A DNA stretch of 64,000 nt from an uncultured Phycisphaerales bacterium (GCA_963755915.1 CAVWLP010000002.1:544001-608000); one strand, 5' to 3'. Shown: positions 1,609 through 43,078, counted from the first letter of the stretch. Numbers and translations: made by a program. The notes: generated from the sequence alone by a model not told the origin.

Positions 1609-1695
1609 TTGAGGGAACTAATATCGCATGAACCCTCGCCCGCTAGTAGAGGTAGAGACGGTCAGAATGTCGCCACTGGACAATTATGTGGGCAT

Positions 1696-1911: not shown

Positions 1912-2015
1912 AACTTCTCCTTGTTGAGGAACGTTGGAAGGAGATATGCAATGGGCGTGCCGCGCTGCGCGAGAGAGTGGAGATGTAGAAAGTAGAAAGA
2001 GGGGAAGGGGAAAAA

Positions 2016-3306: not shown

Positions 3307-3321
3307 TACCTTTTGCGGGCA

Positions 3322-4974: not shown

Positions 4975-5051
4975 GGGGCGAATTAGCAGAGATTAAGGGA
5001 ATGGTTAGGGGGGTCGCGACGAATATAAAGATCGTTATACTTGCGATTGAA

Positions 5052-6152: not shown

Positions 6153-6160
6153 CGAGAAAT

Positions 6161-6252
6161 CCGAAACCAGAATCAAACCAGAATGACGAATGACTAAATG
6201 GTTATCATTTGGTCATTCGTCATTTAGATTTGATTCGGGATTCTGGTTTCGG
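6161..6252. repeat. long imperfect intergenic palindrome built from short units
   Basis: CCGAAACCAGAATC...AATGACGAATGACTAAATG-GTTAT-CATTTGGTCATTCGTCATT...GATTCTGGTTTCGG. Confidence 0.75.
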
Positions 6253-6304
6253 GCTTCTGGTTTCGCGCGGTTGCCTTCGCATCAAATGAGTCTAAAATCC
6301 GCGA

Positions 6305-9117: not shown

Positions 9118-9121
9118 AATT

Positions 9122-9985
9122 ATGAGCGACCGCTTTGTACTGGTGACGGGCAGCAGCACCGGGATCGGCAAGGCATGCGCGATGTATCTGTCCCGCAATG
9201 GGTTCGTGCCGATCGCGGGGGTGAGGCGGGAGGAGGATGCAAAAAAGCTGGAGCTGATCGCGGGCGACAAGGTGCGATGGGTGATCCTCGATGTCACGAG
9301 TTCGGAATCGATCAACGCGGCGGCGAAAAAGATTGAGGAAATCTGCGGGGACGCTGGATTGTGCGGAGTGGTGAACAACGCGGGAATCGGCGTGCATGGG
9401 CCGGTGGAATTTGTTCCGATGGAGGATTGGCGGAAGCAGTTTGACGTGAACGTTTTCGGTCAGGTGATGGTGACGCAGGCGATGCTGCCGCTGGTTCGGA
9501 AATATGTTTCGTCGAATGGATATGGGTCGGGGCGGATTATTTTTATCGGGTCGATCGCCGGGCGGGTGTCGATGCCAATCATGGCGCCTTACTGCGCTTC
9601 GAAGCATGCGATTGCGGCAATCGCGGGCTCACTGCGGATCGAGCTGGCGGGGCAGGGGATTTATGTGAGCCTGATTGAGCCGGGGGCGATTCAGTCGGAG
9701 ATCTGGCGCAAAGGGGAGGAATTTTCGGAGACCATTCCGCCGGATGCGCCGGCGCGGGTGAATTATGGGCCGATGATCGATGCGGTGATCGGAACGTCGC
9801 AGAAGTCGGCGGCGGGGGCGATTCCGGCGGAGGCGGTGGCGAAGGTGGTTGAGCGGTGCCTGACGGCGGAGAAACCACCGAAGCGGAAACTGGTTGGGAA
9901 CGACGCGGTGATGGCGGCGATTGCGAGGCGATTTTTGCCGGAGGGGTGGTTTGAGGGGATGCTTCGGAAGGCGATCAAGGTTTAA
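9122..9985 (+). CDS. short-chain dehydrogenase/reductase
   Basis: TGSSTGIG, NNAG, YCASK. Confidence 0.9.
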   Translation: MSDRFVLVTGSSTGIGKACAMYLSRNGFVPIAGVRREEDAKKLELIAGDKVRWVILDVTSSESINAAAKKIEEICGDAGLCGVVNNAGIGVHGPVEFVPMEDWRKQFDVNVFGQVMVTQAMLPLVRKYVSSNGYGSGRIIFIGSIAGRVSMPIMAPYCASKHAIAAIAGSLRIELAGQGIYVSLIEPGAIQSEIWRKGEEFSETIPPDAPARVNYGPMIDAVIGTSQKSAAGAIPAEAVAKVVERCLTAEKPPKRKLVGNDAVMAAIARRFLPEGWFEGMLRKAIKV

Positions 9986-10083
9986 GTGGTTTTTGCCGGG
10001 GATGCGAGCAGAAATACTTTGAATCGTGGGACTGCGGGCGATAAAATGACGGCCGTAGGGCGGTTGCTTAAGGGAGGCTCAAA

Positions 10084-18956: not shown

Positions 18957-19000
18957 AACTCGGCAGGCAGGACTCGAACCTGCAACCAGCCGGTTAACAG
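18957..19000 (-). repeat. att site: 3' half of tRNA-Asn(GTT), copy 1 (not an intact tRNA)
   Basis: Minus strand reads CTGTTAACCGGCTGGTTGCAGGTTCGAGTCCTGCCTGCCGAGTT: anticodon loop, T arm and acceptor 3' strand, with no D arm. Identical 44-mer at 32140-32183. Confidence 0.9.
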
Positions 19001-19580
19001 GCTCGGTCTGGGCGACGCCGGAAAGCCTGAAAAACCAAGGATTTTCAAGCATTTTACCCTTCTGAAACCCAAATGCAATCGCATTTAAAAATACGCATTC
19101 CTACTTAAAAAACGTCAGTATTTCGAACTGGCTTCCGTAAATACGGAGGCCATATCGACCGGCCATCTAAGACGAAGCAACGTTGTTTTGGGTGTAGGTG
19201 ATCCCTGCGACACAAATGACTTTAATTTCGTTTTTGAACTTCCGCTGCTGATGGACACCGTGTCCGGCCACCCCCTGCTGCGTTTCTCCGCTAAATTTCC
19301 GCTCTTTTTGCGCAATGATACTAAAGCGGTTCCGATTGCCATCAGCGGTCGTCACTTTCCTGTTTTTGTCGTTCCATTTTCACCGCCCTACTGGGCAAAG
19401 GAGATTCAGCGCGAACGTTGAAGACCTGACTTAGCTATTGGACTCGTAGGGCCCGATCGACCGCCTAACCGTGTCATCGGGCCATTTCTATCTCGCCTCC
19501 GCACGTGCGGGGGCGGCTTTGTTTTCACAACAAGGCCGTCCCCCCACGGGGACGGTCCCCACCAAGAAAGGACCCTCCCA

Positions 19581-20048
19581 ATGAGTGCTGTTTTATCCAC
19601 ACCTGCCTCCTGGCAGGCAGGATTTGTTGCTGTGCTGCCGGCAATTGAAAACCATGCCCGAATTCGATTCCGATATCTGCGACCCGAGCGTCGCCAAGAG
19701 GCCATTCAGGAGGCGATCGCATCGGCCTGCTGCTCGTATCGCCGGTTGGCGGCCCAAGGGATGTTGCACCGCGCCACGGCCAGCACATTGGCAAAGTTCG
19801 CCATTCGGGCAGTTCGCGGAAGTCGCCATGTCGGGGGAACCCAGGAGAAGCTCAATGATGTGCTCTCCCCCGTCGCCCAGCGCCACCACGGCTTCCAGGA
19901 CGTGACCCATCGAGCCAGATCGTCCAGCACCAAAGGCGAAGGCTGGCTTGCTGAGGCGATTCCCCACCCGATCCGAGAGGAACGGGTGCCGACGGGACCG
20001 CATCCGACCAGCCGAAAGTTGAAGCCACGGCAAGCGAACATCGTCTAA
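19581..20048 (+). pseudogene. probably truncated sigma-factor-like DNA-binding protein of planctomycete mobile elements
   Basis: LPAIENHARIRF...RQEAIQEAIASAC...LAKFAIRAVR resembles sigma region 2; the sequence after about 19900 looks unrelated. Confidence 0.4.
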
Positions 20049-20183
20049 CCGCTGGGCGTGGCGCTCCTGCTCACGCCGGGGCGCAGCCATCATTCCGCGC
20101 AGGGGCGGGCGACCGAGGATATCACGGGTTATTTGAATCGAACGATGAAGATGATTAACCACCTAATTCCGAAGGACCCGATC

Positions 20184-20312
20184 GTGGCATCAAACACAAA
20201 CTCTGTTCATCACCGCCAGCAGGAAAGCCTCTATCATGCGCTCGGGCCATTGATCGCCGACGCGCTGGCGCAGCCCGACGTAGTGGAGATCATGGCCAAT
20301 CCCGACGGCAAA
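20184..20312 (+). pseudogene. trbB: 5' fragment of TrbB/VirB11 ATPase
   Basis: [30 protein letters not shown] matches [30 protein letters not shown] of the intact trbB at 56690. Confidence 0.85.
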
Positions 20313-20365
20313 GCGCGCGATCGATTAACGTTGCGAGTCGGGCTCGGTATGATATCTTTTCTGCC

Positions 20366-21202
20366 ATGACGACGAATTCGGAAGTGCCGAAGTCTCTGGA
20401 AACGCCAAGGCAGAATGCACGAAGTTTCGTACTGCACGAGGCCAACCTCGCTCAACTTCGCAAATTGCAGCCTAATCTGGCAGTATTGCCTTGGGGCGCA
20501 ACCGAGGCACACAATTATCATCTTCCTCACGGAACGGACGTGATAGAGGCAACGTGGGTGGCGGAAGTTGCGGCGGAACGCGCCAACGCCAACGGAGCCC
20601 GATGCGTATTGCTGCCCTGCGTCCCGTTCGGCAACAACAACGCACAATTGAATCAAGTGTCAACAATCACCATGAAGTCGGCGACACAACAAGCGGTGTT
20701 GTTCGATATTGCTGACAGTCTGGCGCGACAGGGCATTGATCGTCTGGCGATCGTGAACTTCCACGGAGGGAATGAATTCAAGTCAATGATTCGCGACGTA
20801 ATGCTCACTGTGCCAATCTTTATCGCTCAAATCGATGCGTATTCGGTAGCACCAAATGCTCTGCAACTGCTGAATGAACCTGGCGATCATGCGGGAGAAT
20901 TTGAAACGAGCTTGATGTTGTACCTGGTTCCACATTGGGTGGCGCCGCTTGAAACTGCCGGCAACGGCGAAACCACGCCCAGCAAACTTCCGGCGGTGAG
21001 CGGCACACCGGGAGTGTGGGCTCCGCGCTACTGGCCAGAATTGACAAAAGATACCGGCGTTGGAAATCCTAAGGCTGCCACAGCCGAAAAAGGAAGTCAC
21101 ATATTTCAAATGATCGTGGAGGCCATTGTGCCTGTCTTGGTGCAGCTATCCGCCGCAAAGAGAGGCGATTTTCCGTTCGTTATTCCTTCCGACGCCGGAT
21201 GA
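20366..21202 (+). CDS. creatininase/creatinine amidohydrolase family protein
   Basis: LPWGATEAHNYHLPHGTD, NFHGGN, DHAGEFETS, GVGNPKAATAEKG. Confidence 0.9.
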   Translation: MTTNSEVPKSLETPRQNARSFVLHEANLAQLRKLQPNLAVLPWGATEAHNYHLPHGTDVIEATWVAEVAAERANANGARCVLLPCVPFGNNNAQLNQVSTITMKSATQQAVLFDIADSLARQGIDRLAIVNFHGGNEFKSMIRDVMLTVPIFIAQIDAYSVAPNALQLLNEPGDHAGEFETSLMLYLVPHWVAPLETAGNGETTPSKLPAVSGTPGVWAPRYWPELTKDTGVGNPKAATAEKGSHIFQMIVEAIVPVLVQLSAAKRGDFPFVIPSDAG

Positions 21203-21258
21203 TCTTTGGGGCGAATCGTCGCCCGCAGATTGAAACGCATTTTGTCAATTGTGGCGCT

Positions 21259-23034
21259 TCACAATTGTTCTCCGGCACGGAGGACGTTTAACGAAAGCAC
21301 AAGCGTCACTAGCGCGCCTTCAGCCCAGATTTCGTTTGGGTGAGATTTGCCAATCTCCCTTCTGAGGAATTGGTTCACACTTTCAAGCGTAAGTTTTGGA
21401 AGATCATCCGACGACAGGAACTTATCGAACTCGTCTTTATCAAATTTGTCCTTATCGAAGTCGAACTCGCCATGGTGCTCAGCCTTCCGTGCGCCGGCAA
21501 TTACTTCGTCTGCGCTGCAATCATCAACTGAGACATAAAAGCATAGAGGAACGCTGAGGTTGGGCATATATGCGCAGGGGCCAAGGAACCGGATGGCTTT
21601 AATTTGTTTTAAGAGATCTCTTCGACCCTCGGTCGCTTCCGGAAAGACTTCTCTTCGAAGGCCGCGCCGCACCGCCGCATCAAGATCTAAACTATAATGG
21701 CCATTTTTCCAAGATAGCGCGTTCTTGTATATTCCTTCGCACGCTGATACATATAATTTTCCTCCATCTCCGAAATTCGCCGCGCTTTTCGAGCGACGTC
21801 TAATGATCAGCTTGTCGTCCTTCAGAGTGTGAACGAGAATTAGAGTCGAGATACTGAGATGAATGAACTTCTGAAAGCGAGGGAAATAATCACGGAGCTC
21901 GATGCCCCGCAGGAACTTTTTTAATTCGCCGCGTACCTCTCTTGAACAGAGCGCGATAACTCTATACGTAAAGTAATCGGTTAGATGCAGCACCAATCTT
22001 ATTGACTCGCGTCCGTCAGGTAGCCGATCCCACTCCATGCCCGCTAGTGCGAGCAGAATTCCGTTAAACTTAAAACCGTTCCCACCCGGAAGGTTGAATT
22101 GCGTTCGAAGAAACTCCTCAATTGCAAGAAGCCTGCACTTCTCGAAACAGGGATTTCCTTTCAGCCATGTAAAGACCTCAAGACGATCGGCGGAATCTGG
22201 CAAAACGTCGCCGCCTTCCGGATCCAAGAACTTGGTCAGATTCGGTTCTTCTTTTACCTCTTTTATTTTGCCTAGGCATGCATTCGGACTTCGGCCAAGT
22301 TGTTTACTGATGGCAATTATTTCATCTTCCGGCGGTATGGCCAGGCGAAATAGGCGAATTGGCGGTTCGGCGGCGTATTCGGCGCTTCCGCCCAAGATGG
22401 AATCACCGGCCCCATTTGGCTCATCGATCGTCACGTTAATCTCGCCGGGGCCTACCGGTCGGTTCAAAGCGTGAAATGAGACTTCCGATAACTGCCTTTT
22501 GACCCATTCAAAATCGCCATTGCTGTCGTCTAACGTGGAATCAATCGTTGTGATAGCTATTGGCAGTTTAATCCCAAACTTGTCTGCCAACTTCGAAACT
22601 ACCTGCTCCGGCCCGACATCGTCCTTACTGCTTACGCTCAGCTTCACGTCGCTCAGCTTTGATGTGATTTCGATCCCCTCTTTTTGCTTCCCCGTATGAA
22701 ACTTTAACCCTTCATCGAGTGCGCTAAAAATCCTCGCAATCGGTCCACGGCTGTACCGTTTGCGCAAATATATGACCTTCGTCACGATGTTGCTGTGCTC
22801 GTTTGTTCGGTAGTCTTTCGCGAGCACCTCATAGCCCACAGCGCCTCCCCCCAAATAGAGCAAGTATACCACTAGCGCGAGGGCGTGAATCCCTTCGACT
22901 TCGCAGTCAACCACGGAGACGGGTGTCCTCCCGGTACTTGTGCAGTCGATTGTTATTTCGGTGCATCGATAAGACAACACCCCTTCATTTTCGATTTCCT
23001 CAAACCGGAAAGTGGCCGACCAGGATTTGTCCAT
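21259..23034 (-). CDS. putative winged-helix plus NUDT22-like Nudix-fold protein (candidate sensor/regulator)
   Basis: C-terminal half FNG...LTDYFTY...TLKDDKLIIRRRS...VSACEG...AVRRGLRREV is a degenerate Nudix box. N-terminal ALVVYLLYLGGGAVGYEVLAKDY...IVTKVIYLRK is wHTH-like. ATG 23034 lies 6 nt after TATAAT. Confidence 0.55.
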   Translation of the reverse strand: MDKSWSATFRFEEIENEGVLSYRCTEITIDCTSTGRTPVSVVDCEVEGIHALALVVYLLYLGGGAVGYEVLAKDYRTNEHSNIVTKVIYLRKRYSRGPIARIFSALDEGLKFHTGKQKEGIEITSKLSDVKLSVSSKDDVGPEQVVSKLADKFGIKLPIAITTIDSTLDDSNGDFEWVKRQLSEVSFHALNRPVGPGEINVTIDEPNGAGDSILGGSAEYAAEPPIRLFRLAIPPEDEIIAISKQLGRSPNACLGKIKEVKEEPNLTKFLDPEGGDVLPDSADRLEVFTWLKGNPCFEKCRLLAIEEFLRTQFNLPGGNGFKFNGILLALAGMEWDRLPDGRESIRLVLHLTDYFTYRVIALCSREVRGELKKFLRGIELRDYFPRFQKFIHLSISTLILVHTLKDDKLIIRRRSKSAANFGDGGKLYVSACEGIYKNALSWKNGHYSLDLDAAVRRGLRREVFPEATEGRRDLLKQIKAIRFLGPCAYMPNLSVPLCFYVSVDDCSADEVIAGARKAEHHGEFDFDKDKFDKDEFDKFLSSDDLPKLTLESVNQFLRREIGKSHPNEIWAEGALVTLVLSLNVLRAGEQL

Positions 23035-23040
23035 GCGGTC

Positions 23041-23183
23041 ATTATATCCGCTGCACGAAGCCGTTATAGGGGCCGCGTCGCGCACCAAGAATCTGATTTA
23101 GGCGCACCCCGTCCTTTCAAAGCGCGCACCAAATCGCCAGGCAAGCGCAAATTTTCCGCTCGTTGGCTCTAGCGGCGGTGCGC
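23041..23183. promoter_or_regulatory. divergent promoter region: minus-strand TATAAT (23041-23046) and GCGCACC heptamer array
   Basis: GCGCACC starts at 23080, 23102 and 23124; GCGCAAA at 23145; inverted copy GGTGCGC at 23177-23183. Confidence 0.65.
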
Positions 23184-23238
23184 TTCGCAGGATTCAATGG
23201 CGCGAAGTTTGCACTGGTTCGCACATACTAAGGACGCC

Positions 23239-24162
23239 ATGGACACGATCACTAAACAATGTTCTGATGGAAATGACACCGACCGAATTTCGACGCTCGA
23301 CTTACATCTTACGGGTGGATGTCAGTACGTGTGCAAGTATTGCTGGGGGGAAGAGGATACTTCGCCACCAATGACCCGCGCCGTCTTTGATGCTTGCCTC
23401 GATTTTGCTGAACGCGTTCGAGCGGTCACAATCGAGTATTGCGGTGGAGAACCAACTCTGTCGCCACACTTTCGGGAATTCGTTATCTCTGCGCGTCGTC
23501 GCGGATTCCGGCTCATCCTGCGTACCAACGGACTCAAACTGCCCGCGTATCTAGATCTTGTCGCTGAACATTTCGATTGGGTCGGTGTTTCCCTAGACGG
23601 CATGCCGGAGATTAATTCCCAAATGCGGCCAAGCCGCCGCCCCATGTCCGCAGAAGAGAAATTTCAGATTCCGATAGAAAGCATTTGGCGACTACATCAC
23701 GTCAACCCTCGCGTCAAAATCATGCTCGCCAGCATTGCGACCTCGCAGAACTTTTTTGATCTTCCGAATCTGCAGGCGTATGTTCAGGATACGGGTCTGC
23801 CGATCACCAAGTGGAAGGTATATGAGTTCATGCGCGATTATTTCCGATCCGCTCAAAATCATCAAGATTTTGCCATGTTGCCGGCCGATTTTGCTGCTCT
23901 CCGTCGTACGCTGCAAGTACAACACAACGGCGACTACCAGCTAATCATGCAGGGCACCGACACCATTGGAGCTGGAAGCAACTGTCTGCTTGTATATCAC
24001 GATGGAGCAGTAAGGAATGGCGGCTTGCATTTCGGCTATATCGGCCGTGATCCCTCCGCAGACATCGCCGCTCGTTTATTTGCTGGCCATGGCGTTGATT
24101 TTATCCAAGGAAACAAAAGCACAACTTACGAATTGACATACAACGGGAAGCAGATCGTATGA
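23239..24162 (+). CDS. radical SAM enzyme, viperin/RSAD2-like motif pattern
   Basis: LHLTGGCQYVCKYCW (CxxxCxxC), GGEPTL, RTNG, DWVGVSLDG, KWKVYEF; no Cys-rich SPASM domain; AAGGA RBS before ATG 23239. Confidence 0.85.
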   Translation: MDTITKQCSDGNDTDRISTLDLHLTGGCQYVCKYCWGEEDTSPPMTRAVFDACLDFAERVRAVTIEYCGGEPTLSPHFREFVISARRRGFRLILRTNGLKLPAYLDLVAEHFDWVGVSLDGMPEINSQMRPSRRPMSAEEKFQIPIESIWRLHHVNPRVKIMLASIATSQNFFDLPNLQAYVQDTGLPITKWKVYEFMRDYFRSAQNHQDFAMLPADFAALRRTLQVQHNGDYQLIMQGTDTIGAGSNCLLVYHDGAVRNGGLHFGYIGRDPSADIAARLFAGHGVDFIQGNKSTTYELTYNGKQIV

Positions 24163-24893
24163 CAAACCAAAGACTTGTCATCGGCGTTTTAACGTTTGAA
24201 AGGCCGGATCTTCTAGCGAAGACATTAGCAGATTTTTATCGATGGCTAGCACCGCAGCTCGGCAAATTGACAATGATGATATATGATAACGGAAGCCGGC
24301 CCGAAATAGAGACTGCCAACCGCAATATCGCCAGAAAACATGGCGCTTGGTTCATCACCAGTGGTATTTCCGTTCCAGAGACGGCCGACGCAGCGGAACG
24401 TGACCAACGTATTTCCGCTGGGCATTGTTTCTTGACGCAACAGATGATGACCATTCCCGGTGATGCATATATGCTGTTGGAGGACGACTGGGGATGTAGC
24501 GGGTCGGCCCCCATTCAGCCGTTACTTGGTTTTCTAGGGCAAAATCTTCAATTCGGTCAAATTCGGTTGCGCAAGTACCGATACGACGGCACGCTGACAG
24601 GAGGTTCTCGGCACAACTTTGTGACCGGTGCGCCAATCATGTGGGAAAGAGATCACCCCGTTCAAGGCGCGCTCCTCCGGGCTGGGAATTTGCACTGGAC
24701 GAATAACCCGTCGCTTTTCTTACGCCATGCTTTGGACATTGTTGCGAAAGGCTATCGCACCGAACTGGACTGCATGCGGGCATTCGCAGCCAAGTTTCCA
24801 CAGAACCTGCAGCTTGTGCCGGGCATATTTCATCATACAGGCCCATGGCGCAGCAGGCCCGATCTCGTTGAGATTGGAGTGCTGAAAATCTGA
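24159..24893 (+). CDS. GT-A fold (GT2-like) glycosyltransferase
   Basis: VLTFERPDLL, IYDNGS, LLEDDW; ATGA overlap with the radical SAM stop. Confidence 0.7.
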   Translation: MTNQRLVIGVLTFERPDLLAKTLADFYRWLAPQLGKLTMMIYDNGSRPEIETANRNIARKHGAWFITSGISVPETADAAERDQRISAGHCFLTQQMMTIPGDAYMLLEDDWGCSGSAPIQPLLGFLGQNLQFGQIRLRKYRYDGTLTGGSRHNFVTGAPIMWERDHPVQGALLRAGNLHWTNNPSLFLRHALDIVAKGYRTELDCMRAFAAKFPQNLQLVPGIFHHTGPWRSRPDLVEIGVLKI

Positions 24894-24903
24894 GAGTTTT
24901 GAG

Positions 24904-25554
24904 ATGAACTGGTTTTTTCACCGACTTGACGATGTGGGACTTGCTGCACGGGGGCCATTGTCGCTGTATAACGAGTTGGCGGCGAATCAGCTGCCATGCA
25001 TTCTTGCCGTGATTCCCGCCGAGCTAAGTCCAACCCTGGCGGCGCTCATTCGACACTGGCCGAATGCGATTGTTTATCAACATGGAAACGATCATGTAAA
25101 TCGCGCCAGTTCCGGATGGTGGGATGAATTTCCCGCGAGCGCGCAGCCACAATTGGTGGCCAAGGCCCTAGCAGGCGGCCGAGAACGTTTGGAACATCTC
25201 CTAGATCGCCGTATATGCGGATACGTTCCACCCTTCAATCACACTGCGAATTCCACACTATTGATTCTGAAAGACCTGGGATTTACGGTCCTATCTGGCC
25301 AGCGTAATCATAAAATGGCCAGCCCACTACGGCAATGGCCAATCGATATTGACATCATGGCTACTTATGGATCGCCACCGAAACTGAAAACTCCTACACA
25401 AATCGAGTCGGAGCTCGCTTGTTGTCCGGGCATGTGCGGAATTATGTATCATCTAAACGTGCTTGATCCAGTCCAACAAGCGCAAGTCCGTAACCTTTTG
25501 TTGGGACTCTCGACCGTTACTGCTCTGCCTTGGCAAAAAGGATGTACTCCATGA
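24904..25554 (+). CDS. NodB/polysaccharide deacetylase-like protein (DUF2334-like)
   Basis: RLDD, LAVIP, QHGNDH, YVPPFN, IMYH. Confidence 0.8.
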   Translation: MNWFFHRLDDVGLAARGPLSLYNELAANQLPCILAVIPAELSPTLAALIRHWPNAIVYQHGNDHVNRASSGWWDEFPASAQPQLVAKALAGGRERLEHLLDRRICGYVPPFNHTANSTLLILKDLGFTVLSGQRNHKMASPLRQWPIDIDIMATYGSPPKLKTPTQIESELACCPGMCGIMYHLNVLDPVQQAQVRNLLLGLSTVTALPWQKGCTP

Positions 25555-26291
25555 TCTATCCTTGGCAAGATTCCGTTCACCTCCAATTCCTCGGACTCCC
25601 AACACGGCGCATAAGCCTGGAAGTACTCGACCAGGAACACTACGACGATCAGGATTCCCCGGAGAAACGCTGCTTCAATGGGAGATGGGATAACTGGCAA
25701 GGAGTCACTGTAAAGTATCAAGCAAAGTCCGAGAGATGTGCAATTATTGGCTCGCGGGGCAAGACAGTCTGGTACGTTCCTGCACTAACTCCTCGATCGG
25801 CGGACAGTTTGGGGATTCCGATCGGGCATGCTCTAAAGATCCTAAAGTATCCGTTATCTGCTCGACCAAAACATGAAGTACAACGATTAAAGTACGAATT
25901 GCTGATCCAGCAAACATTAAACAAGTGTGGGCTAGCGCCACGGGTGTACAACGTCCTCGTGATTCGTAACGATGTGGACAACCGTGTGATGTGGTTTGAT
26001 CACTCGTACGAACATCCTGCAGGTTCGTTATATTTAGCAACCGAAGTTGAGCATGTGTCGGCCGATCGTTTCCCGACCAACCAGATCCACCTCGGTGATA
26101 AATGGGACTTCTCTGGAACCCTCGTGGATGGTCTGGTTGCCCGCTGCTGCGCAGTAGGGATTGCGCCTTACGATTTGGTCCTGGGCAACCTCACATACTC
26201 CAAAGGGGACGTCAAAGTTCTCGATTTTCATAGGTGGCAATTCATGCGACCTCCCTGGATCGGCGGGCGGCTGTTGCGCGAGGTGAAATAG
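25551..26291 (+). CDS. protein-kinase-like fold phosphotransferase (small-molecule or sugar kinase-like)
   Basis: ALKILK, E in helix C, GLAPRVY, YDLVLGNL (D...N catalytic loop), VKVLDF; ATGA overlap with the upstream stop. Confidence 0.6.
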   Translation: MIYPWQDSVHLQFLGLPTRRISLEVLDQEHYDDQDSPEKRCFNGRWDNWQGVTVKYQAKSERCAIIGSRGKTVWYVPALTPRSADSLGIPIGHALKILKYPLSARPKHEVQRLKYELLIQQTLNKCGLAPRVYNVLVIRNDVDNRVMWFDHSYEHPAGSLYLATEVEHVSADRFPTNQIHLGDKWDFSGTLVDGLVARCCAVGIAPYDLVLGNLTYSKGDVKVLDFHRWQFMRPPWIGGRLLREVK

Positions 26292-26292
26292 C

Positions 26293-27674
26293 ATGTTGCT
26301 GCGCATTATCTTTATTATCGCTATCGTATTGTGGCTCCTTGCAAGTATGAAACGATGGGCTCAGTTACGAGCCAGCTTTGCGTGGATATGCCGAGGAGCC
26401 GACTGGGAGGCGAAATCTCCAGTCTGCGAATACCCGAACATTTTGATTCTAATACCGATGTTAAATGAACAGAGTATCGCTGAAGATACAGTCAAACATT
26501 TTGCAAGGCTAAGATATCCCTCGAATCGACTGCGCATTGCATTTGTTACCACGCCGCGCGAACGGAACCATAGAATCCACGGCGAACTAGACACACATGC
26601 CGTCGTCAAACGCGCAATTACCAACCTGGGCGAAATTCGACACGCTATAGACGTTATTGATTGCTCAGGTGCCGATTGCTGCAAAGGCGACCAATTGAAT
26701 GAGGCAATTGCAAAGTTTCGTAATGAGATCGGTCATGGATGGCCCCGAGAATCCACATTCATAGGAATCTACGATGCCGATTCGCGGCCCGACCTTGGCA
26801 CACTTGAATTCCTTGCTTGGCGATTTAGCGAAGCACGGCGCCAAAAGCACCGAGACCCGGTAGCATTTCAGCAGATGGTATCGTTCTTTGCGAATTATGG
26901 AAGTATTCCAGGGGGGATTCGTGGTTGGCTGTTACGTGCGCGCCCTTGGCAGAATTTGGACTTTGCTCTGACCCGCGAAATACCTGGATTTTGGCACCAG
27001 CACTCTTCGAACGAGGGGGAATGGTTCTGGCGATCTTGGCTCCACCACTTACTAGGTCACGGCGAGTTCATACGTTGGGACACGCTTGACGAAATAGGTG
27101 GGTTTCAGCCGCCAAGTTGTGATACTTCGCTGGGTTACACCCTGGCCTACCTCGGGATTAGCGTAAATACTATTCCGTTGTTCGATTGCGGTCAAACACC
27201 TACTAAGTTTTGTGCACTGCTTCAGCAAAATACCACTTGGTACCGTGGTGTGTGTCTATTCTGGCGGGACTGGCGTTTTGCGCGTTCTGTAGGCAGTGTT
27301 TCACTAACGAGAGCTGTCGTGATGATTCTCAAGAGAATATACAACAGTTTATCTTGGTCCGTGTTCCCAGCAATAATGACGATTATTCCTATAATCGCAT
27401 TCCTCACCGAGCAATACGCTGTTTTGTTTTTTTGGTGCGTTGGCCTCTGCTTTTACATCGCACCGGCTGCCCGCGAGATGGTCTTTGCGCCAGAAATGGC
27501 CTTGGTGAGGCAGATAAGTGTGTGAGGAGAGAATCAATATGGAGCTGTGCGGGCACGTTATGCGCCTACCCGTTGTTGACGGTTTTGCTTATGTCTGGTC
27601 CGTCTCTGCATTACTACCGACTGGCGGCAAGATATCTTGGGATCGACATATCGTATGAGAAAACTGAGCGATAA
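26293..27674 (+). CDS. membrane-bound GT2 glycosyltransferase; frameshift near 27480-27520
   Basis: N-terminal TM, LIPMLNE, KGDQLN, YDADSRP, GHGEFIR, QQNTTW (QxxRW-like), TM segments; the shifted frame ends YEKTER. Confidence 0.8.
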
Positions 27675-28098
27675 GCATGAATGGGCCCGCTGTTCGGACT
27701 ATTCCGCCTCAGGATGGATGGGGCCGAAGTATTCAGTAACCTCCGTCCGCGTCGAAAATCCAAGCGGCTTCCGAAAGGGCATTTTTGCTCGTGAGTTGTC
27801 TGAACGAATTCGGGTGTGATACTTCATTGGGGTATCAGCCCAGAGGTTCAGTGTTTTCCTGTACACAAAACTGTACACACTTTTTTGGAAAACATGGCAA
27901 ACAAGGCTATCATGGGGCATACGGCTCAGGGTCGTAAACCCTGGGGATGTCAGCAATTTCCGATATCGTCAGCACTTGCGGTTTTTGTCAGGCATCACTT
28001 AAATCACGCCACGTAACATCACTTCAAATGCCGCCATTTTGGAGAGGCGCAGATTCGGTCCGTAAGCTTCCCGGCTGCTCGCCGGTGGGAGCTTGCGG

Positions 28099-29751
28099 AT
28101 GTCGAATCGGCTCACAATGGCGGAACATCAGACAATCTTGGGACTTGCGCGACTGAACTGGTCGTATCGCCGGATCGCCGCGGAACTGGGCATCGACCGG
28201 GAGACGGTCTCTCGTCACATTAAATCCGCGGTGATCGAACCACCCGGTGCAGGTCCGCCGGATCCAGATGCCGCCATTCTGATTGCCGGGTCCGAGGTCA
28301 GATCGGAGGCAAATGCCACCATTCCGATGACCGGGTCAATGCACGGCGAGGCGGAATCTGTCGGTTCAAATGCCGCCATTTCGATTACCGGGTTTTCCGG
28401 CCGTCACAGCCAGTGCGAGCCATGGCGCGCCGTCATCCTTCAGGGTCTTGAGCAAGGCCTGACGGCCAAGCGTATCTGGCAGGACTTGGCTGCCGATCAT
28501 GGCTTCGACGGTCCTTACCAACCGGTCCAGCGATTTGTCCAGCGGCTCAACCGTGCCGGAACCAACGGATTGCCCTATCGGCGAATGGAATGCGCCCCCG
28601 GCGCCGAGGCCCAGGTGGACTTCGGCAAGGGCGCGCCCCTCGTCACACCCGACGGCAAACGAACCCGTCCCCACCTGTTCCGCATCGTGCTGAGCTGCTC
28701 GCGCAAAGCCTACAGCGAAGTGACGCCCCGGCAGACCACCGAGCAGTTCATCCGCTGCATCGAAAACGCCTTCATTCACTTCGGCGGTGTTCCCAGAACT
28801 CTGGTGATCGACAATCTCAAAGCGGCCGTCACCCATGCCGACTGGTACGATCCCGATCTGAATCCCAAGATTCAGGAGTTCGCGCGTCACTACGGCACCG
28901 TCATTTTGCCGACGCGCCCAAGGACGCCACGGCACAAGGGAAAGATCGAACGCGGCGTCGGATACGCCCAGGGGAATGCTCTCAAGGCCCGAACCTTCAA
29001 GAGCCTTTCCGAGCAGAACCAATTCCTGGCCGAATGGGAATCGACCATCGCCGACACGCGCATTCATGGCACCACGCGCAAGCAGGTGGCGAGGATGTTC
29101 GCGGAAGTGGAGAAGCCGGCGCTATTGCCTCTTCCGCCGGGACGGTTCCCCTGTTTTCAGGAAGCCCAGCGGATCGTCAACCGTGATGGCCACGTGGAGG
29201 TGGCCAAGGCGTATTACTCGGCGCCGCCGGAGTTCCTCGGCCGGACCATCTGGGCGCGCTGGGACGGGCACGTCGTCCGGCTCTTTGATTCTCAGCTTCG
29301 GCAGGTTGCCATCCACGTTCAGCACGAGCCGGGACGCTTCGCCACCGATGATCGTCACATCGTTCCCGAGAAGCGCGGCGGGATCGAACGCGGCGCGGCC
29401 TGGTGGATGAACAAGGCCAGCGCCATCGGTCCCCACGCCGGCCAATGGGCTGAAAATGTCCTGAATTGCCGGGGGATTCACGCCTTGCGCGTGGTGATGG
29501 GGCTGGTCAGTCTCACGCATCGCCATCCCGCCAAAATGATCGAACAGGCCTGTCAGGTGGCTCAAGGGCACGGCACCCATCGGCTGCGCGACATCCGCAA
29601 TCTGCTGAAACGATCGGAATCCGCCGCGCAACAGCAACAGTTCGAGTTCGTCGCCGAGCATCCCCTGATCCGGTCGCTTTCGGATTACTCCCAACTGGTC
29701 CATGACGCTTTCGATAACACCCCCGTGGAGGCAAAGCCTCCACTTTTTTGA
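28099..29751 (+). CDS. istA: IS21 DDE transposase
   Basis: N-terminal HTH, PGAEAQVDFG, FGGVPRTLVIDNLK, KGKIERGV. Confidence 0.95.
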   Translation: MSNRLTMAEHQTILGLARLNWSYRRIAAELGIDRETVSRHIKSAVIEPPGAGPPDPDAAILIAGSEVRSEANATIPMTGSMHGEAESVGSNAAISITGFSGRHSQCEPWRAVILQGLEQGLTAKRIWQDLAADHGFDGPYQPVQRFVQRLNRAGTNGLPYRRMECAPGAEAQVDFGKGAPLVTPDGKRTRPHLFRIVLSCSRKAYSEVTPRQTTEQFIRCIENAFIHFGGVPRTLVIDNLKAAVTHADWYDPDLNPKIQEFARHYGTVILPTRPRTPRHKGKIERGVGYAQGNALKARTFKSLSEQNQFLAEWESTIADTRIHGTTRKQVARMFAEVEKPALLPLPPGRFPCFQEAQRIVNRDGHVEVAKAYYSAPPEFLGRTIWARWDGHVVRLFDSQLRQVAIHVQHEPGRFATDDRHIVPEKRGGIERGAAWWMNKASAIGPHAGQWAENVLNCRGIHALRVVMGLVSLTHRHPAKMIEQACQVAQGHGTHRLRDIRNLLKRSESAAQQQQFEFVAEHPLIRSLSDYSQLVHDAFDNTPVEAKPPLF

Positions 29752-29761
29752 AAGGAGATTT

Positions 29762-30673
29762 ATGAACGAATCGTTACGAACCGCCCTGACCCGCCTTCGG
29801 CTTTCGGGCTTGGCCTCCACCTTGGACGTGCGCTTGCAGGAAGCCGCCGGCCATCAGCTTTCCCACGGCGAGTTTTTGGAACTGGTGCTTCAGGATGAAT
29901 TGCTCATTCGCAATGAACGCCTGATCGCCCGGCGCGTCAAGATCGCGGGCTTTCGGGAACTCAAGACCCTCGACGAGTTCGACTTTTCCTTCAACTCGTC
30001 GGTCAAACGCAAGCAGATCTTCGAGCTGGCAACCGGCCGGTTCATCCGCGAGGCGCGGGATGTCTTGCTGATCGGGCCGCCGGGTCTGGGAAAAAGTCAC
30101 ATCGCCCAGGCACTGGGATACCAAGCCATCAAGAACGGATCGGTCGTGCTTTACCGCTCGATCTTCGACGTGGTGCGCGACTTCCTGCACGATGAGGCCC
30201 TCAACCAGCAGGACAAAATCATGGAGCGGTATCTCCGGCCCGATCTGCTCATCATCGACGATATGGGCATGAAGCAATTGCCCAAACGCTCCGGCGAATA
30301 TCTCTTCGAGATCATCATGCGGCGTTACCAGGTTCGCTCCACCATGATGACCAGCAACCGGCCGCTCGAAGACTGGGGCAAATTGATCGGCGACGTACCG
30401 GCCGCCACGGCAATCCTCGATCGCTTCCTGCACAACGCCGAGGTGATCGCGATCACCGGCAGAAGCTATCGGTTGCGAGACCGTGCCGCGGAGGCGAAGC
30501 CTACCGCTGAAAGCATCGAATCCACCAAACCGCGAGGACGCCGGAGTACCGGCGGCGATGAAGGGCTTTCCCCTCCGGAAGACACCGATGCCAGAAAGCC
30601 ATTGTCTTCTGGCGTGGGGGTTCAGCCTGCCGAAGCGGCCTCGCCGGTAGTCAACAACTCGGCGTCAATTTGA
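29762..30673 (+). CDS. istB: IS21 helper AAA+ ATPase
   Basis: GPPGLGKSH, LLIIDDMG, TSNRP, AILDRFLH, GRSYR. Confidence 0.95.
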   Translation: MNESLRTALTRLRLSGLASTLDVRLQEAAGHQLSHGEFLELVLQDELLIRNERLIARRVKIAGFRELKTLDEFDFSFNSSVKRKQIFELATGRFIREARDVLLIGPPGLGKSHIAQALGYQAIKNGSVVLYRSIFDVVRDFLHDEALNQQDKIMERYLRPDLLIIDDMGMKQLPKRSGEYLFEIIMRRYQVRSTMMTSNRPLEDWGKLIGDVPAATAILDRFLHNAEVIAITGRSYRLRDRAAEAKPTAESIESTKPRGRRSTGGDEGLSPPEDTDARKPLSSGVGVQPAEAASPVVNNSASI

Positions 30674-30774
30674 AATGGGACGGTCGATTGCGATATATCG
30701 GACGTGGTGGCATTTGATCCGATGATCGGTGGTGGCATTTGAAGTGATGACTGACAGGTTTTTGAGCCGATTAC

Positions 30775-30817
30775 GCTCATAACCCGGAGGTCGGAGGTTC
30801 GAATCCTCCCCCCGCTA
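30775..30817 (+). repeat. att-like 3' half of an initiator-type tRNA-Met(CAT) (not an intact tRNA)
   Basis: GCTCATAACCCGGAGGTCGGAGGTTCGAATCCTCCCCCCGCTA; no 5' half even after the IS21 is removed. Confidence 0.85.
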
Positions 30818-30828
30818 TTCCAGATGAC

Positions 30829-30860
30829 AAAGGGACTTGCAGCGATGCGAGTCCCTTTTT
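30829..30860 (+). terminator. intrinsic terminator-like hairpin after the tRNA-Met fragment
   Basis: AAAGGGACTTGC-AGCGAT-GCGAGTCCCTTTTT. Confidence 0.6.
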
Positions 30861-30964
30861 CTTTGGCCAAAAATGGGCCTGCTGCCCCATAAACTGCCCC
30901 ATTCGGCCTGGGAAACATGGTACTCGCCAAGGAGTGTTCAACACTTGTTCCTTGGAGGTGGCCA

Positions 30965-31209
30965 GTGGCCTATTTGTTCAAGCGCGGAAGCGTCTATTAC
31001 GTGAAGTTCTACGTCGCCGGAAAGCAGAAGGAGAAATCCCTCGGTACCGGCGTTTTTCAGATCGCAAAGGAAAAGCAGCGGTTGTTCGAGTCGGCGCGGG
31101 CCAGGGGCGAAAGCCTTCCGATGCCGACGCGCACGCCCATCGCGGACAAGCAATGGTGGCCACGCTGATCTTCGCCGGTCTGCGGCGCGAGGAGTTGTTG
31201 TGGCTCAAG
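30965..31209 (+). pseudogene. tyrosine integrase relic (arm-binding N-terminus joined to box I by internal deletion)
   Basis: GGAGG RBS; YLFKRGSVYYVKFYVAGKQKEKSLGT, then in a shifted frame AMVATLIFAGLRREELLWL. Confidence 0.75.
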
Positions 31210-31410
31210 CTGTTCCAGCTTGCGCAGCGACACGCGAAGCGCACCGGCGAGCAGTCGCCGCTCCGAGCGGTTCACCATGTTCAGCGTGTGATACGTTTGC
31301 ACGTCGCTGAGCGTTTGCAGCGACACGCCGTACAACTCTGCCAGATCCTTCCAGTTTTCCAATCCCACCACTTCCCTGCGATGGTCGAGCCATTGAATAA
31401 GCCTCGACAT
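31205..31410 (-). pseudogene. 5' fragment of an HTH regulator paralogous to 32461-33163
   Basis: MSRLIQWLDHRREVVGLENWKDL versus MSRLIEWLDHRMDVMGIENWKDL. Confidence 0.8.
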
Positions 31411-31457
31411 CGTTTTTCCTTGTTGGAGAAATCATTTCGTCAACGTCAGCACTCCTA

Positions 31458-32020
31458 ACAAGCTCGTCGCGCACCGGACGGACCGGCGGCGATTCGTGGG
31501 CTTCCGATCGTCCGGCTTTTAGACCCTCCACGGCCTGCAGGCCATGATAGACCGTCGGGGAAATCAACTCGTTTCCGACCGCCCAGCGGAATAGATGCTT
31601 GATTCGTCCGATCCGCCGATTGATGCCAGTCCGAGACAATCCCGCATCGATCATATTTTGCCGGACCGCCTTGAGAGCCAGCGGCCCAAAATCCTTCGCC
31701 GGCGTATGGCCGTATAGCCGGCGCAGAGGGCGCATTGCATCGCGGTAGTTGCGAATCTCGTTTGTAGGTGAGCCGTCGACGTGCCGGTAATACGTCTGGG
31801 CGTAATCCCAGAACGCCGCGATCAGTTCGGTGATGGTATGCCCATCAGTTGAAGTTTGTTGCAGACGGCCGTTGGCGAGCCATTCGGCGATGGCCCGGTC
31901 GTAGGCTTTCTTGGCGGTGGCGCTTTGCCATGGACCGAGGTAAACATCACGGCCCATCAGGCGGACGACCGCCTGACCACTGGCCTTGTGGAGAGTCATT
32001 CGTGGAATCGACTGCGACAT
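31458..32020 (-). pseudogene. tyrosine integrase of element 1, catalytic domain deleted
   Basis: HKASGQAVVRL...VYLG...FGPLALKAVR...INRRIGRIKHLFRWAV...PVRPV, then homology stops; starts 120 bp from the att. Confidence 0.85.
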
Positions 32021-32043
32021 GGTGCGACCTCCGAATCGTCCAT

Positions 32044-32066
32044 TTCCTCAGTACAATACTGAGGAA
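32044..32066. promoter_or_regulatory. perfect inverted repeat upstream of the integrase
   Basis: TTCCTCAGTA-CAA-TACTGAGGAA. Confidence 0.5.
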
Positions 32067-32139
32067 TTTTGGAAGATCAGGCCGCACTTCCGCACGCGGG
32101 AAGGTACGCTTAGTGAAGCGTCCGGCGCAACTTATCAAC

Positions 32140-32183
32140 AACTCGGCAGGCAGGACTCGAACCTGCAACCAGCCGGTTAACAG
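32140..32183 (-). repeat. att site: 3' half of tRNA-Asn(GTT), copy 2 (junction between elements 1 and 2)
   Basis: Identical to 18957-19000 over 44 bp. Confidence 0.9.
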
Positions 32184-35434: not shown

Positions 35435-36207
35435 ATGAGCAAAGCTCAACGGGTTTCGGCTTCGGAAGTCGCGGGAGCGGTGCGTCTGGCTTGGGAAGGC
35501 GCCGAGCTGCGAACTGATCCTGTCGCGCAGGGTCGTCGTCTGGTCGACGGCATGGCCAAACTGATTGGCGGGGATATCGGATTCTACAGCGCGGTTGCAG
35601 ATTTCGTTCCGTCTAAAATACCGAGATGGCTGTTTGCTTCCACAGGAAGCGAAATCCCATTGCCGATTTTACAGTATTTCGCTTGCACCGAAAATTCGAT
35701 CCTCGATGATCCGGCAATGGATCTCGGGTGCCGCGCAAAACTCTGCTGTATTGCAAATGCGCGAGCTCCTAGCTGGGCGGAACCTCAAACCGTACGCAAA
35801 AGTTTTGGAGACAATGCGCAGGCATCAGACATCGCGACGCGCTCATTGGCATTTTTCGGAGAAAAGATAAATCCTCCATCACAGCCTTAAGCGTGCACCG
35901 CACAGAGCTAATTCGTGCCCACAATGCACGGGAACGCTCCGTTGTTCACTGGTTTGTGCGGGAAATACAGTATTTATACGAGACGGGCCGGCTTGAGACG
36001 GCGACTGCAGGACCCTTTGACGCTCTTTCGCCCCGGCTTCGGCAGGTGGCGGAAATGCTGCTGACCTCCGCCCCTCAAAAGCAGATCGCGCGGTCGCTGT
36101 TCTTAAGCGAGTCCACCTTGCGCGATTACGTGAAACAGGTATATCGACAGCTTGGGGTGGAAAGCCGCGCCGAAATTATGTCGCGGTTCTCCACAAACAT
36201 TCGCTAA
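35435..36207 (+). CDS. LuxR-type HTH regulator, copy 1 (frameshifted)
   Basis: Paralog of 36244-37020; LSPRLRQVAEMLL...KQIARSLFLSESTLRDYVKQVYRQLGV. Confidence 0.8.
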
Positions 36208-36243
36208 GAATTCCGCTTGCGCCATCGTCAGGGGAAATCGCAA

Positions 36244-37020
36244 ATGGGTAAATCTCAAAGAGTCGATGCGTCGCAAGTTGCTACCGCCATACGTCTAGCC
36301 TGGGAAGCCACCGAGCTGCGATCCGATCCTTCCGGTCAGGGCCGTCATCTCGTTGACGGTCTTGCGAAACTAATCGGCGGCGACATCGGTTTCTATTGTG
36401 CAATAGGCGACTTTGTTCCCAGGAAACTGCCTCGCTGGCTTTTCGCAGCCACCGGCACCGAGGTTCCCACGCCTCTTCTGCAATATTTCGCTCGCCCCGA
36501 AAGTTCCATTCTTGAAGACCCGGTAATGGATTTGGGAAGAGCCTCGACTGGCATAACCGTCTTACATATGCGCCAACTCCTAGCCGGCCTCGATCCAACG
36601 CCGTATCTCAATGCAATCGACATCATGCGCCGCATTGGACATCACGATGCGCTGATTGGAATGTTCCGCCGAAAGGACGCGGCGGCAGTCACCGCCTTGA
36701 GCGTACATCGCACTGATTTGAACCGTCCAAACAGTCCGCGTGAGCGATCGATCGTTGGCTGGCTGACTCGCGAATTGCAATATCTTTACGAAACCGGCCG
36801 TATTGAGATCGCTTCCTCGAAGCCATTCGATCATCTTCCGCCTCGGCTTCGGCAAGTGGCGGAAATGCTGCTGACTTCAGCGCCACAGAAACAAATCGCG
36901 CGGGCGCTCTTCCTGAGCGAATCCACCTTGCGCGATTACGTGAAGCACATCTATCGCCAATTGGGCGTCGAGAGCCGGGCCGAATTGATGGTGCGGTGCT
37001 CTGCCGGCTGTACGAAATAA
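36244..37020 (+). CDS. LuxR-type HTH regulator with N-terminal GAF-like sensor, copy 2
   Basis: C-terminal LPPRLRQV...KQIARALFLSESTLRDYVKHIYRQLGVESRAEL. Confidence 0.85.
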   Translation: MGKSQRVDASQVATAIRLAWEATELRSDPSGQGRHLVDGLAKLIGGDIGFYCAIGDFVPRKLPRWLFAATGTEVPTPLLQYFARPESSILEDPVMDLGRASTGITVLHMRQLLAGLDPTPYLNAIDIMRRIGHHDALIGMFRRKDAAAVTALSVHRTDLNRPNSPRERSIVGWLTRELQYLYETGRIEIASSKPFDHLPPRLRQVAEMLLTSAPQKQIARALFLSESTLRDYVKHIYRQLGVESRAELMVRCSAGCTK

Positions 37021-37419
37021 CCCTCCTTCTCACTTGCGTTCTTTCGTCGCTCAATGCGACCCCCCAATTTGTGGGGGATTGAAACACCCGCTGCTGTTGC
37101 GATAGAAGCACCTTCCGTGTCAACGACCAGGGTCAATTTTGGCGTCCTGCCCGTTCATGCAGTTATTTTGCGGACGCCGATCCCTCGTTTAACATGGTGT
37201 TCAAGCCGGAGCCAAAATTGGCGACGACGACAATTTGAATTGACGCGCGTGCGTCAAGTCGCTGTTTCATCGAAATCCGCCAGCTTTCACGTACAGAAAC
37301 AGTGCCTTGTGCCCGCGCCCCGCAAGGGGCGTCGGCCAGGGTACGTTCTGTACGCCCCCTGGCGGGGGTTCGATGAGCGTCCTTGGTTCGACGCTCTTTT
37401 TCATTTCAGGGGGCCTCTC

Positions 37420-37728
37420 ATGGGCCGTCAACGAAATCCCGTCAGAGACAAAAGTCACAAACTGCCAGTTCTGGATATCGACGAGTGGCATCCGATCATC
37501 CGCTCGCTCGGCCTATCGGGACGCCAGGGGCGAATTGTGGAGCTGATCCTTCAGGGCAAGAGGGACAAACAGATAGCCGCCGAGTTGGAACTGAGTGTTC
37601 ACACGATCCGAACGTATATGAAGAGAATTTTTGACAAGGCAGGAGTTGATGATCGTTTTGAACTGCTTCTACGGATAATGGCAATTCGCAAATCGAACTG
37701 CGGGCAATCGAGGTGTCCCTATAAATAA
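37420..37728 (+). CDS. stand-alone LuxR/GerE HTH protein
   Basis: LSGRQGRIVELILQGKRDKQIAAELELSVHTIRTYMKRIFDK. Confidence 0.8.
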   Translation: MGRQRNPVRDKSHKLPVLDIDEWHPIIRSLGLSGRQGRIVELILQGKRDKQIAAELELSVHTIRTYMKRIFDKAGVDDRFELLLRIMAIRKSNCGQSRCPYK

Positions 37729-41241: not shown

Positions 41242-41284
41242 TGTCATGCTTTTAAGCCGGCGCGGCCGGAAGGCGGAATCAATA

Positions 41285-43051: not shown

Positions 43052-43078
43052 CAGATTCATCCTACCGTCGAGGCAAAT

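Follow-up and report, generated by a model that had tools for sequence, protein, structure and literature searches.

A candidate glycoconjugate operon led by a radical SAM enzyme of predicted viperin-type fold on a tRNA-Asn islet of an uncultured Phycisphaerales bacterium

We analysed a 64,000-nt stretch of DNA from an uncultured Phycisphaerales bacterium (GCA_963755915.1, CAVWLP010000002.1:544001-608000; hereafter the window, in whose coordinates positions are given), with emphasis on a six-gene cassette at 21259–27674. It consists of five co-oriented genes led by a radical S-adenosylmethionine (SAM) enzyme and a divergent gene for a 591-aa protein. The five genes form one translationally coupled unit and are carried by a 13-kb islet that occupies a tRNA-Asn attachment site. 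The reading we favour, at a probability of roughly 0.45, is that of a horizontally acquired operon that would make or decorate a membrane-bound sugar polymer or glycolipid with the aid of a viperin-fold tailoring enzyme. A glycoconjugate pathway is favoured because the parts with outside kin, a membrane family-2 glycosyltransferase (GT2) and a deacetylase-like protein, point to sugar-polymer or glycolipid clusters. All six proteins appear to have very few relatives, or none, in the searches made; the largest of these, over 5.8 billion proteins, covered three of the six: the GT2, the 591-aa protein and the radical SAM enzyme. The features of the cassette are as follows.

21259–23034, minus strand: 591-aa protein (ATG at 23034; frame open to 23088; same start in the database copy, P0003)
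23035–23196, no strand: divergent intergenic region (soil contigs X1, X3 and X4 have two extra bases, GC, behind 23144)
23197–24162, plus strand: radical SAM enzyme, 321 aa (the database copy begins at M15, giving 307 aa)
24159–24893, plus strand: 244-aa soluble protein, no family assigned (GT-A-like by motifs alone)
24904–25554, plus strand: 216-aa protein with a distant likeness to polysaccharide deacetylases
25551–26291, plus strand: protein-kinase-like protein, by language-model features (246 aa from the ATG at 25551; 253 aa from a TTG at 25530)
26293–27674, plus strand: membrane GT2 (assembled frame 26293–27525, 410 aa, split by a frameshift; 460 aa in soil contigs)

The open-frame map agreed with the first-pass annotation of this DNA, which had described five tightly packed genes in one orientation (23197–27674, plus strand) facing a divergent 591-aa gene. 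The operon junctions are, in order, a 4-nt overlap (24159–24162), a 10-nt gap, a second 4-nt overlap, where the ATG at 25551 overlaps the stop codon of the 216-aa gene (25552–25554), and a 1-nt gap. The cassette was also correctly described as AT-rich: GC content per kb is 0.49–0.53 between 21 and 28 kb, against 0.55–0.61 on both flanks and 0.591 for the contig. No paralogues of the six proteins were found in the same genome. Promoter and terminator scans gave results at chance level, with no promoter-like site above chance in 23035–23196.

The family-2 glycosyltransferase label given to the last gene was borne out. Its product matches PF13632 at 30.6 bits (gathering cut-off 27) and has hydrophobic segments at residues 1–19 and 353–434, one N-terminal and several C-terminal. 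D161-A162-D163 is invariant in all seven aligned rows, and the columns of a Q...W-Y-x-G motif are also common to six homologues (P0156–P0161; 437–501 aa, 31–38% identity), whose C-terminus reads ...YQKTER. The window frame stops at 27525, and another frame continues to ...SYEKTER at 27674; the conserved C-terminal end is reached only by switching frame, which confirms the predicted frameshift in this assembly. In both soil contigs that cross the site (X1 and X2) there is an extra G behind 27490. With this base the gene reads as a single 460-aa frame, which aligns over its whole length with five of the six homologues, residues 3–460 corresponding to residues 1–470 of P0156. Because soil contigs carry the intact 460-aa frame, the break is specific to this assembly or strain, and a natural intact allele of the operon exists in soil. 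On two cyanobacterial plasmids the neighbours of distant GT2 relatives are glycan genes, for glycosyltransferases, a carbamoyltransferase, a pyruvyl transferase, an ABC-2 exporter and a sulfotransferase. A scan of viral contigs revealed no member of the GT2 family, and a sequence search of the PDB returned nothing at E <0.1.

Part of this DNA is present in five soil-metagenome runs, which come from two studies; the listed sequencing runs holding it include no RNA data. Contigs were compared from four runs, all from one study (X1–X4). At an identity of at least 99%, contigs cover the cassette in 30 of 30 depth bins (X1) and 29 of 30 (X3); over this region the soil contigs differ from the window by the extra G, the GC behind 23144 and two base differences. 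These data bear on the possibility that the cassette is cargo that is inert or in decay: foreign genes brought together by chance, without a joint function and heading for loss. The GT2 is frameshifted in this assembly, the islet lacks an integrase and has taken an IS21 insertion, and no second instance of the gene combination was found, as such cargo would lead one to expect. On the other hand, the five genes follow one another with start/stop overlaps or gaps of 1–10 nt, which speaks for a single coupled unit, the remaining frames are all open, and soil contigs at least 99% identical cover the cassette and carry an intact GT2. Inert cargo is very improbable in our judgement.

The three genes upstream of the GT2 yielded less certain assignments. 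By tblastn, 18 plasmid records contain annotated polysaccharide deacetylases that match the 216-aa protein (best E 2e-7), and 10 of these records cover at least 80% of the query; the deacetylase matches span 83–88% of its length. Against PF01522 it scores 11.5 bits (cut-off 23.1, E 0.31), and a PDB sequence search gave nothing at E <0.1. Its earlier description as a deacetylase is weakly supported, by the tblastn matches and not by Pfam, where the score lies below cut-off; the likeness is real but distant. A Rhizobium match follows a GT4 gene. The kinase description of the 253-aa protein comes from language-model features, which place it with Atlas clusters annotated APH, Kdo, RIO1 and Pkinase at scores of 0.95–0.97, all ten of the best family-bearing hits sharing a clan. 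Its D-L-x-x-G-N and L-D-F stretches are presumably kinase motifs. The description is weakly supported, as sequence searches gave no match in Pfam (to E 10), NCBIfam or PADLOC, none in the PDB at E <0.1 and none by tblastn on plasmids.

For the 244-aa protein, searches of Pfam, NCBIfam and PADLOC and tblastn on plasmids gave no match, and the PDB gave nothing at E <0.1. When it was compared by hhalign with 15 PF00535 domains from its own genome, residues 6–51 aligned in the expected register at a probability of 2.2% (E 0.022); three control proteins in the same comparison gave E 0.1–0.2. It contains D-N-G-S and E-D-D stretches that we take to be GT-A motifs. At that probability, and with no Pfam match, the proposal that it is a glycosyltransferase was left unsupported. 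Five matches (E 0.003–0.009, three with internal stops) among 400 further genomes of the phylum were read as noise; none of these sampled genomes is listed from the same family, and the nearest listed share only the class. The four operon proteins other than the GT2 are soluble, save for one weak hydrophobic stretch in the 216-aa protein.

The radical SAM enzyme matches PF04055. The best NCBIfam model is viperin NF038283, at 69.1 bits and E 3.4e-19 (cut-off 180), and PADLOC gives a weak pVip match (8.7e-20); viperins are also the nearest named family by plasmid annotation. A HMMER search over 1.84 billion representatives returned 2792 proteins at E 1e-3 or better, 95 at 1e-10 or better and 15 at 1e-30 or better. 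These 15 align over their full length at 33–51% identity, and source databases label the cluster members merely as radical SAM proteins. C42, C46 and C49 of the CxxxCxxC motif and G83-G84-E85-P86 are invariant in all 15, which also share R144, N185, W206-K207, R217, C263 and a C-terminal N-K-x-x-T-Y. Weak sequence matches in the PDB include the blasticidin enzyme BlsE (E 8e-4).

An AlphaFold2 model of the enzyme, built from a 115-row alignment, has a mean predicted local distance difference test score (pLDDT) of 91.8. In Foldseek the viperin 5vsl ranked first, and other radical SAM enzymes had similar E-values. VIA-align told the two apart: its top ten entries consist entirely of viperins and viperin-like enzymes (Z 26.1–27.8, root-mean-square deviation 2.2–2.5 Å over 246–269 residues, with model residues 28–314 aligned); SkfB follows at Z 23.9, and BlsE lies at Z 21.9. 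A partial (beta-alpha)6 barrel with a C-terminal extension defines the viperin fold, as described in a study of these enzymes (10.1101/2023.09.13.557418), and the model has such a barrel, closed by its C-terminal extension.

Membership in the viperins is a separate matter. When the viperin model was run against the 68 nearest relatives, four passed the cut-off, and none of the 14 other clade members reached E 1e-30. In a FastTree phylogeny (111 rows, four fragments shorter than 240 aa left out; a quick, unrooted method) a branch with support 92 sets the 15 clade members apart from all other rows, together with five longer sister proteins they group at 99, and the four sequences that pass the viperin cut-off lie in another group of 12. 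The two groups also differ at individual positions. All seven rows of the core viperin clade have N35, H37, S135, G144 and Y263, whereas all 15 rows of the window clade have D35, G135, R144 and C263; position 37 is variable there, with H in the window protein only. This N-x-H/S135/G144/Y263 signature was derived from the present alignment and not from a paper. Based on these comparisons, the enzyme is built on a viperin scaffold yet falls outside the viperins by membership, in a separate rare clade. The earlier term "viperin-like" holds for the fold (Z 26.1–27.8) and not for membership (69.1 bits against 180, separate clade).

Set beside viperins and pVips as a system, the window enzyme shares the CxxxCxxC and GGEP motifs, the barrel with its C-terminal extension, a size of about 290 aa and a W-K motif common to nearly all relatives, and clade members are often solitary genes. 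It differs in the clade's D in place of N and variable residue in place of H before the cluster, in G and R for S and G at positions 135 and 144, in C for Y at 263, in the invariant C-terminal N-K-x-x-T-Y, and in leading an operon of putative sugar enzymes.

The 591-aa protein gave no match in Pfam (to E 10), NCBIfam or PADLOC, and nothing in the PDB at E <0.1. The 5.8-billion-protein search found one relative, P0004, with 33% identity over residues 175–586, whose N-terminus is a PNP_UDP_1 phosphorylase domain (PF01048). A metagenome scan added one more, in contig L082, with 30% identity over residues 232–579; here the N-terminus is a PIG-L de-N-acetylase domain (PF02585), and a WbqC-family gene comes next. 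The C-terminal ~360 aa thus appear to be a rare module joined to varying N-terminal parts, and the N-terminal ~230 aa of the window protein have no family assignment. L082:5319–8161 has a complete RF3 gene on one side and, on the other, another RF3 C-terminal fragment beside transposase pieces; it looks like an inserted two-gene module. The nearest Atlas clusters of the module consist of hypothetical proteins of 290–330 aa; seven of its 30 Atlas hits fall in clusters in which 15% of members carry PF00293. No relative of the family was found in the viral contig scan, nor by tblastn on plasmids.

This protein had been proposed as a Nudix-fold regulator. Comparison of the family with six Nudix domains of its own genome by hhalign gave a probability of 0.1, there was no Pfam match even at E 10, and no DNA-binding domain was found. 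The proposal is unsupported on both counts, and "Nudix-like" can serve as a lead only. An OmpR-type winged helix at the N-terminus was considered and rejected, the hhalign comparison with five own-genome PF00486 domains giving a probability of 0.2, no better than controls. An AlphaFold2 model from a 3-row alignment had a pLDDT of 33 and was unusable.

These two proteins bring in the reading of the cassette as a chemical anti-phage system, in which the viperin-fold enzyme would make a toxic or chain-terminating nucleotide, the other operon proteins would activate, conjugate, detoxify or export it, and the 591-aa protein would sense infection or degrade nucleotides. Prokaryotic viperins make chain-terminating nucleotides, and viperins are the nearest named family by profile, by plasmid annotation and by fold; like most prokaryotic viperins, the radical SAM relatives are solitary. 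A conjugative element with AbiE and two PADLOC candidates lies next to the cassette, itself mobile cargo. Swapped N-terminal enzyme domains are common in defence proteins, and the 591-aa module is joined to such domains, one of them a PNP_UDP_1 nucleoside phosphorylase. Against these points stand the profile score of 69.1 bits (cut-off 180), the failure of all 14 other clade members to reach E 1e-30, the position of the clade apart from sequences that pass the cut-off, and the replacement of the core-viperin N and H (seven of seven rows) by D and a variable residue. Of seven frames scanned with PADLOC, six, including those of the other five proteins, match no model at E 0.1, and the nearest known defence gene is 17 kb off, in the neighbouring element. 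By no match is the kinase-like protein here a nucleotide kinase. Nucleotide kinases adjoin 12% of bacterial viperins, according to the study cited above (10.1101/2023.09.13.557418). Nothing shows the operon to be a defence system, and we consider this reading unlikely. The statement that the gene combination belongs to no named system held, with PADLOC giving only the weak pVip match and NCBIfam nothing above any cut-off. Full-text literature searches, judged partly by titles and the beginnings of abstracts, found no operon joining viperin-like enzymes with glycosyltransferases and no described defence cassette of radical SAM enzyme, glycosyltransferase and kinase.

If the operon does serve the synthesis or decoration of a membrane-bound sugar polymer or glycolipid, its parts could be arranged as follows. 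The GT2 would transfer a hexosamine-type sugar at the membrane, the 216-aa enzyme would strip the acetyl group from that sugar in the cytoplasm, the kinase-like protein may phosphorylate the sugar or its carrier, and the 244-aa protein may attach a further sugar. The kinase-like protein is compatible with sugar or lipid-sugar kinases, and with others equally. The radical SAM enzyme would alter a nucleotide or nucleotide-sugar precursor via hydrogen abstraction, a viperin-like dehydration being the simplest guess. The 591-aa protein might be an accessory enzyme or ligand-binding partner for a nucleotide or hexosamine metabolite; this role is suggested solely because enzyme domains are fused to its module in two relatives.

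NodC/NodB, PgaC/PgaB and IcaA/IcaB are pairs of a membrane GT2 synthase and a cytoplasmic or periplasmic deacetylase. Here too a membrane GT2 is encoded together with a deacetylase-like protein, and D-x-D and Q...W are kept. The window GT2, however, scores 15.4 bits against the PgaC/IcaA model (cut-off 422), the deacetylase-like protein is below the Pfam cut-off, and the radical SAM, kinase-like and 244-aa genes are without counterpart in those pairs. Hopanoid side-chain (HpnH/I/J/K), poly-N-acetylglucosamine and Nod genes were rejected as identities, no model for them being near its cut-off among the matches listed.

A parallel in gene content is a cluster on a plasmid of Candidatus Manganitrophus (CP114557.1, locus L093, 23716–36951), whose genes, all in one orientation, encode a radical SAM protein, two APH-family kinases, several glycosyltransferases and a domain resembling the 216-aa protein. 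That domain, which is fused to a glycosyltransferase, matches the window protein at E 2e-12 in a pairwise search, but it is the only part of the cluster detectably homologous to the window. The cluster also has an ABC transporter, alginate-export/lyase genes and a histidine phosphatase, and is annotated only, not characterised. With three glycosyltransferases, one carrying the deacetylase-like fusion, it looks in its own right like a modified-polysaccharide cluster.

Several observations weigh against an operon for a sugar polymer or glycolipid. By Pfam scan the islet has no gene for precursor synthesis, a priming transferase, a flippase, a polymerase or an exporter. The Manganitrophus radical SAM protein has no detectable similarity to the window enzyme. 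The roles of the 244-, 253- and 591-aa proteins come from motifs, language-model features or fusions, not from significant alignments. A genome scan found two further clade members, in metagenome-assembled genomes of Patescibacteria (L002) and Micrarchaeia (L008), and at both loci the radical SAM gene is solitary among housekeeping genes: a solute-binding protein, DksA, an M23 peptidase and thioredoxin at one, and TruD, a thiouracil desulfurase, Nop and a tRNA synthetase at the other. Neither locus has a relative of the other five proteins, and no GT2 relative was found in the Patescibacteria or Micrarchaeia genome. Since these relatives stand alone, in genomes without a GT2 relative, the radical SAM reaction needs no operon partners. 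Nor was a second copy of the gene combination found in the two radical SAM loci, the one locus examined of a 591-aa relative (L082, with other neighbours) or the 81 loci compared, from which the other five proteins are absent.

Co-occurrence had been named beforehand as a test by which a conserved system would stand or fall, and its outcome leans against one: in the loci examined the relatives have other neighbours. When the clade profile was run against 401 Patescibacteria genomes, only the centre genome gave a family-level score (2.8e-112); ten other, partial matches (1e-28 to 1e-41) were set aside as other viperin-like enzymes. Both genomes with the solitary gene are smaller than 1 Mb, and an enzyme retained alone in genomes of that size must be useful by itself.

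The same enzyme classes, working on a small acceptor, could form a small cluster for a soluble glycoside or a nucleoside-type secondary metabolite, by sugar transfer, de-N-acetylation, radical SAM deoxygenation and phosphorylation. Aminoglycoside and nucleoside-antibiotic pathways use such steps. The operon offers the same set of enzyme classes, BlsE is both a weak sequence match (E 8e-4) and a fold match (Z 21.9), the kinase-like protein resembles the APH family among others, and the operon is rare and patchy, like natural-product clusters. Yet the terminal enzyme is an integral membrane GT2 of synthase type, the islet lacks a scaffold-forming enzyme, an aminotransferase, a resistance gene and a transporter, and NCBIfam and PDB searches showed no similarity to a characterised cluster. 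We hold a soluble product to be doubtful.

A bolder combination of these ideas would have viperin chemistry recruited for biosynthesis. The new clade would dehydrate a nucleotide or nucleotide-sugar, and the operon would couple the product to sugar on a membrane carrier, giving an envelope-bound or exported 3′-deoxy-3′,4′-didehydro (ddh)-type glycoconjugate able to block phage or to serve as a signal or antibiotic, with the 591-aa module as the matching nucleotide-handling partner. This is speculative, and we think it quite unlikely. If the clade does act on a nucleotide or nucleotide-sugar, viperin-type chemistry would extend beyond antiviral chain terminators, and the operon would point to a deoxy or dehydro sugar building block not known before. 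With a natural intact allele and six proteins of few relatives, the cassette, a single instance so far, offers a compact target for expression and metabolomics.

The location of the cassette in a tRNA-Asn island, put forward in the first-pass annotation, was confirmed and refined: it lies in its own 13-kb islet (19001–32139) between 44-nt repeats of the 3' end of tRNA-Asn. The flanking features are given below.

18957–19000, no strand: left 44-nt direct repeat, 44/44 identical to the 3′ part of tRNA-Asn; left islet border
20366–21202, plus strand: creatininase-family amidohydrolase, in the islet (PF02633 E 1.9e-50; PDB 3lub E 3.3e-50)
27986–30756, plus strand: IS21-family element (istA, istB), 311 nt past the glycosyltransferase gene
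32140–32183, no strand: second 44-nt direct repeat, an exact copy of the tRNA-Asn 3′ part; right islet border and left border of the conjugative element
87770–87843 (window-equivalent), minus strand: tRNA-Asn, 23.8 kb beyond the window end

The 64-kb window itself contains no tRNA gene by ARAGORN. There are three copies of the tRNA-Asn 3′ end, and therefore two elements have integrated in tandem at this tRNA. The first is the islet, which holds the creatininase-family gene, the six cassette genes and IS21. The creatininase-family gene is tail to tail with the 591-aa gene, and its membership in the operon is not established. The second, a 55-kb conjugative element extending to the tRNA-Asn, has genes for ParB, DUF932, DUF3363, TraG and VirB2/3/4/6/8/9/11. 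The assembly consists of three contigs and is 81% complete and 8% contaminated.

Decay of the mobility genes, which had been claimed for all of them, is partial. The integrase beside the tRNA-Asn remains as two fragments, no integrase match was found within the 13-kb islet, and several type IV secretion/transfer frames are short and cover only part of their profiles. IS21, in contrast, is full-length. It is present in eight full-length copies on contig 2, at least 99.86% identical, with a partial copy on contig 3, and looks recently active. In X1–X4 the region from 44 to 64 kb is covered patchily and often at 95–99% identity, so that the islet may occur in that soil without the conjugative element, or the sequencing depth may be insufficient to decide. 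One contig lacks a base at 54708; omitting that base from the window failed to join two coupling-protein frames.

Of the 31 island frames scanned with PADLOC, four matched, all on the conjugative element: AbiEii/AbiEi and the candidate genes PDC-S01 and PDC-S02. The other 27 gave no match. The candidates, a YhcG/PDDEXK nuclease (PDC-S02, E 1e-136) and a DUF4143 ATPase (PDC-S01, E 2.5e-161), sit among transfer genes (window 57925–58977 and L083:6111–7379). Adjoining AbiEii/AbiEi, at 41246–44818, two large adjacent genes (601 and 579 aa) coincide with a second low-GC patch (0.50). Neither has a Pfam or PADLOC match, and the pair may be another cargo module. Three LuxR-family (GerE) regulator genes stand in a row at 35893–37728 of the same element. 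At L083:7438–15325 there are three large co-oriented genes (773, 1330 and 532 aa) without a Pfam or PADLOC match, adjoined by a 1146-aa frame with ShlB and TPS domains.

At the opposite end of the window, positions 1–10000 show a GC skew of +0.30 to +0.43 per kb, against about 0 after 19 kb. The genes there are all on the plus strand and include PMT-family, GT9, PurL-like and SDR members. A DUF1580 domain, of a family known from Planctomycetes, is encoded at L084:1924–2301.

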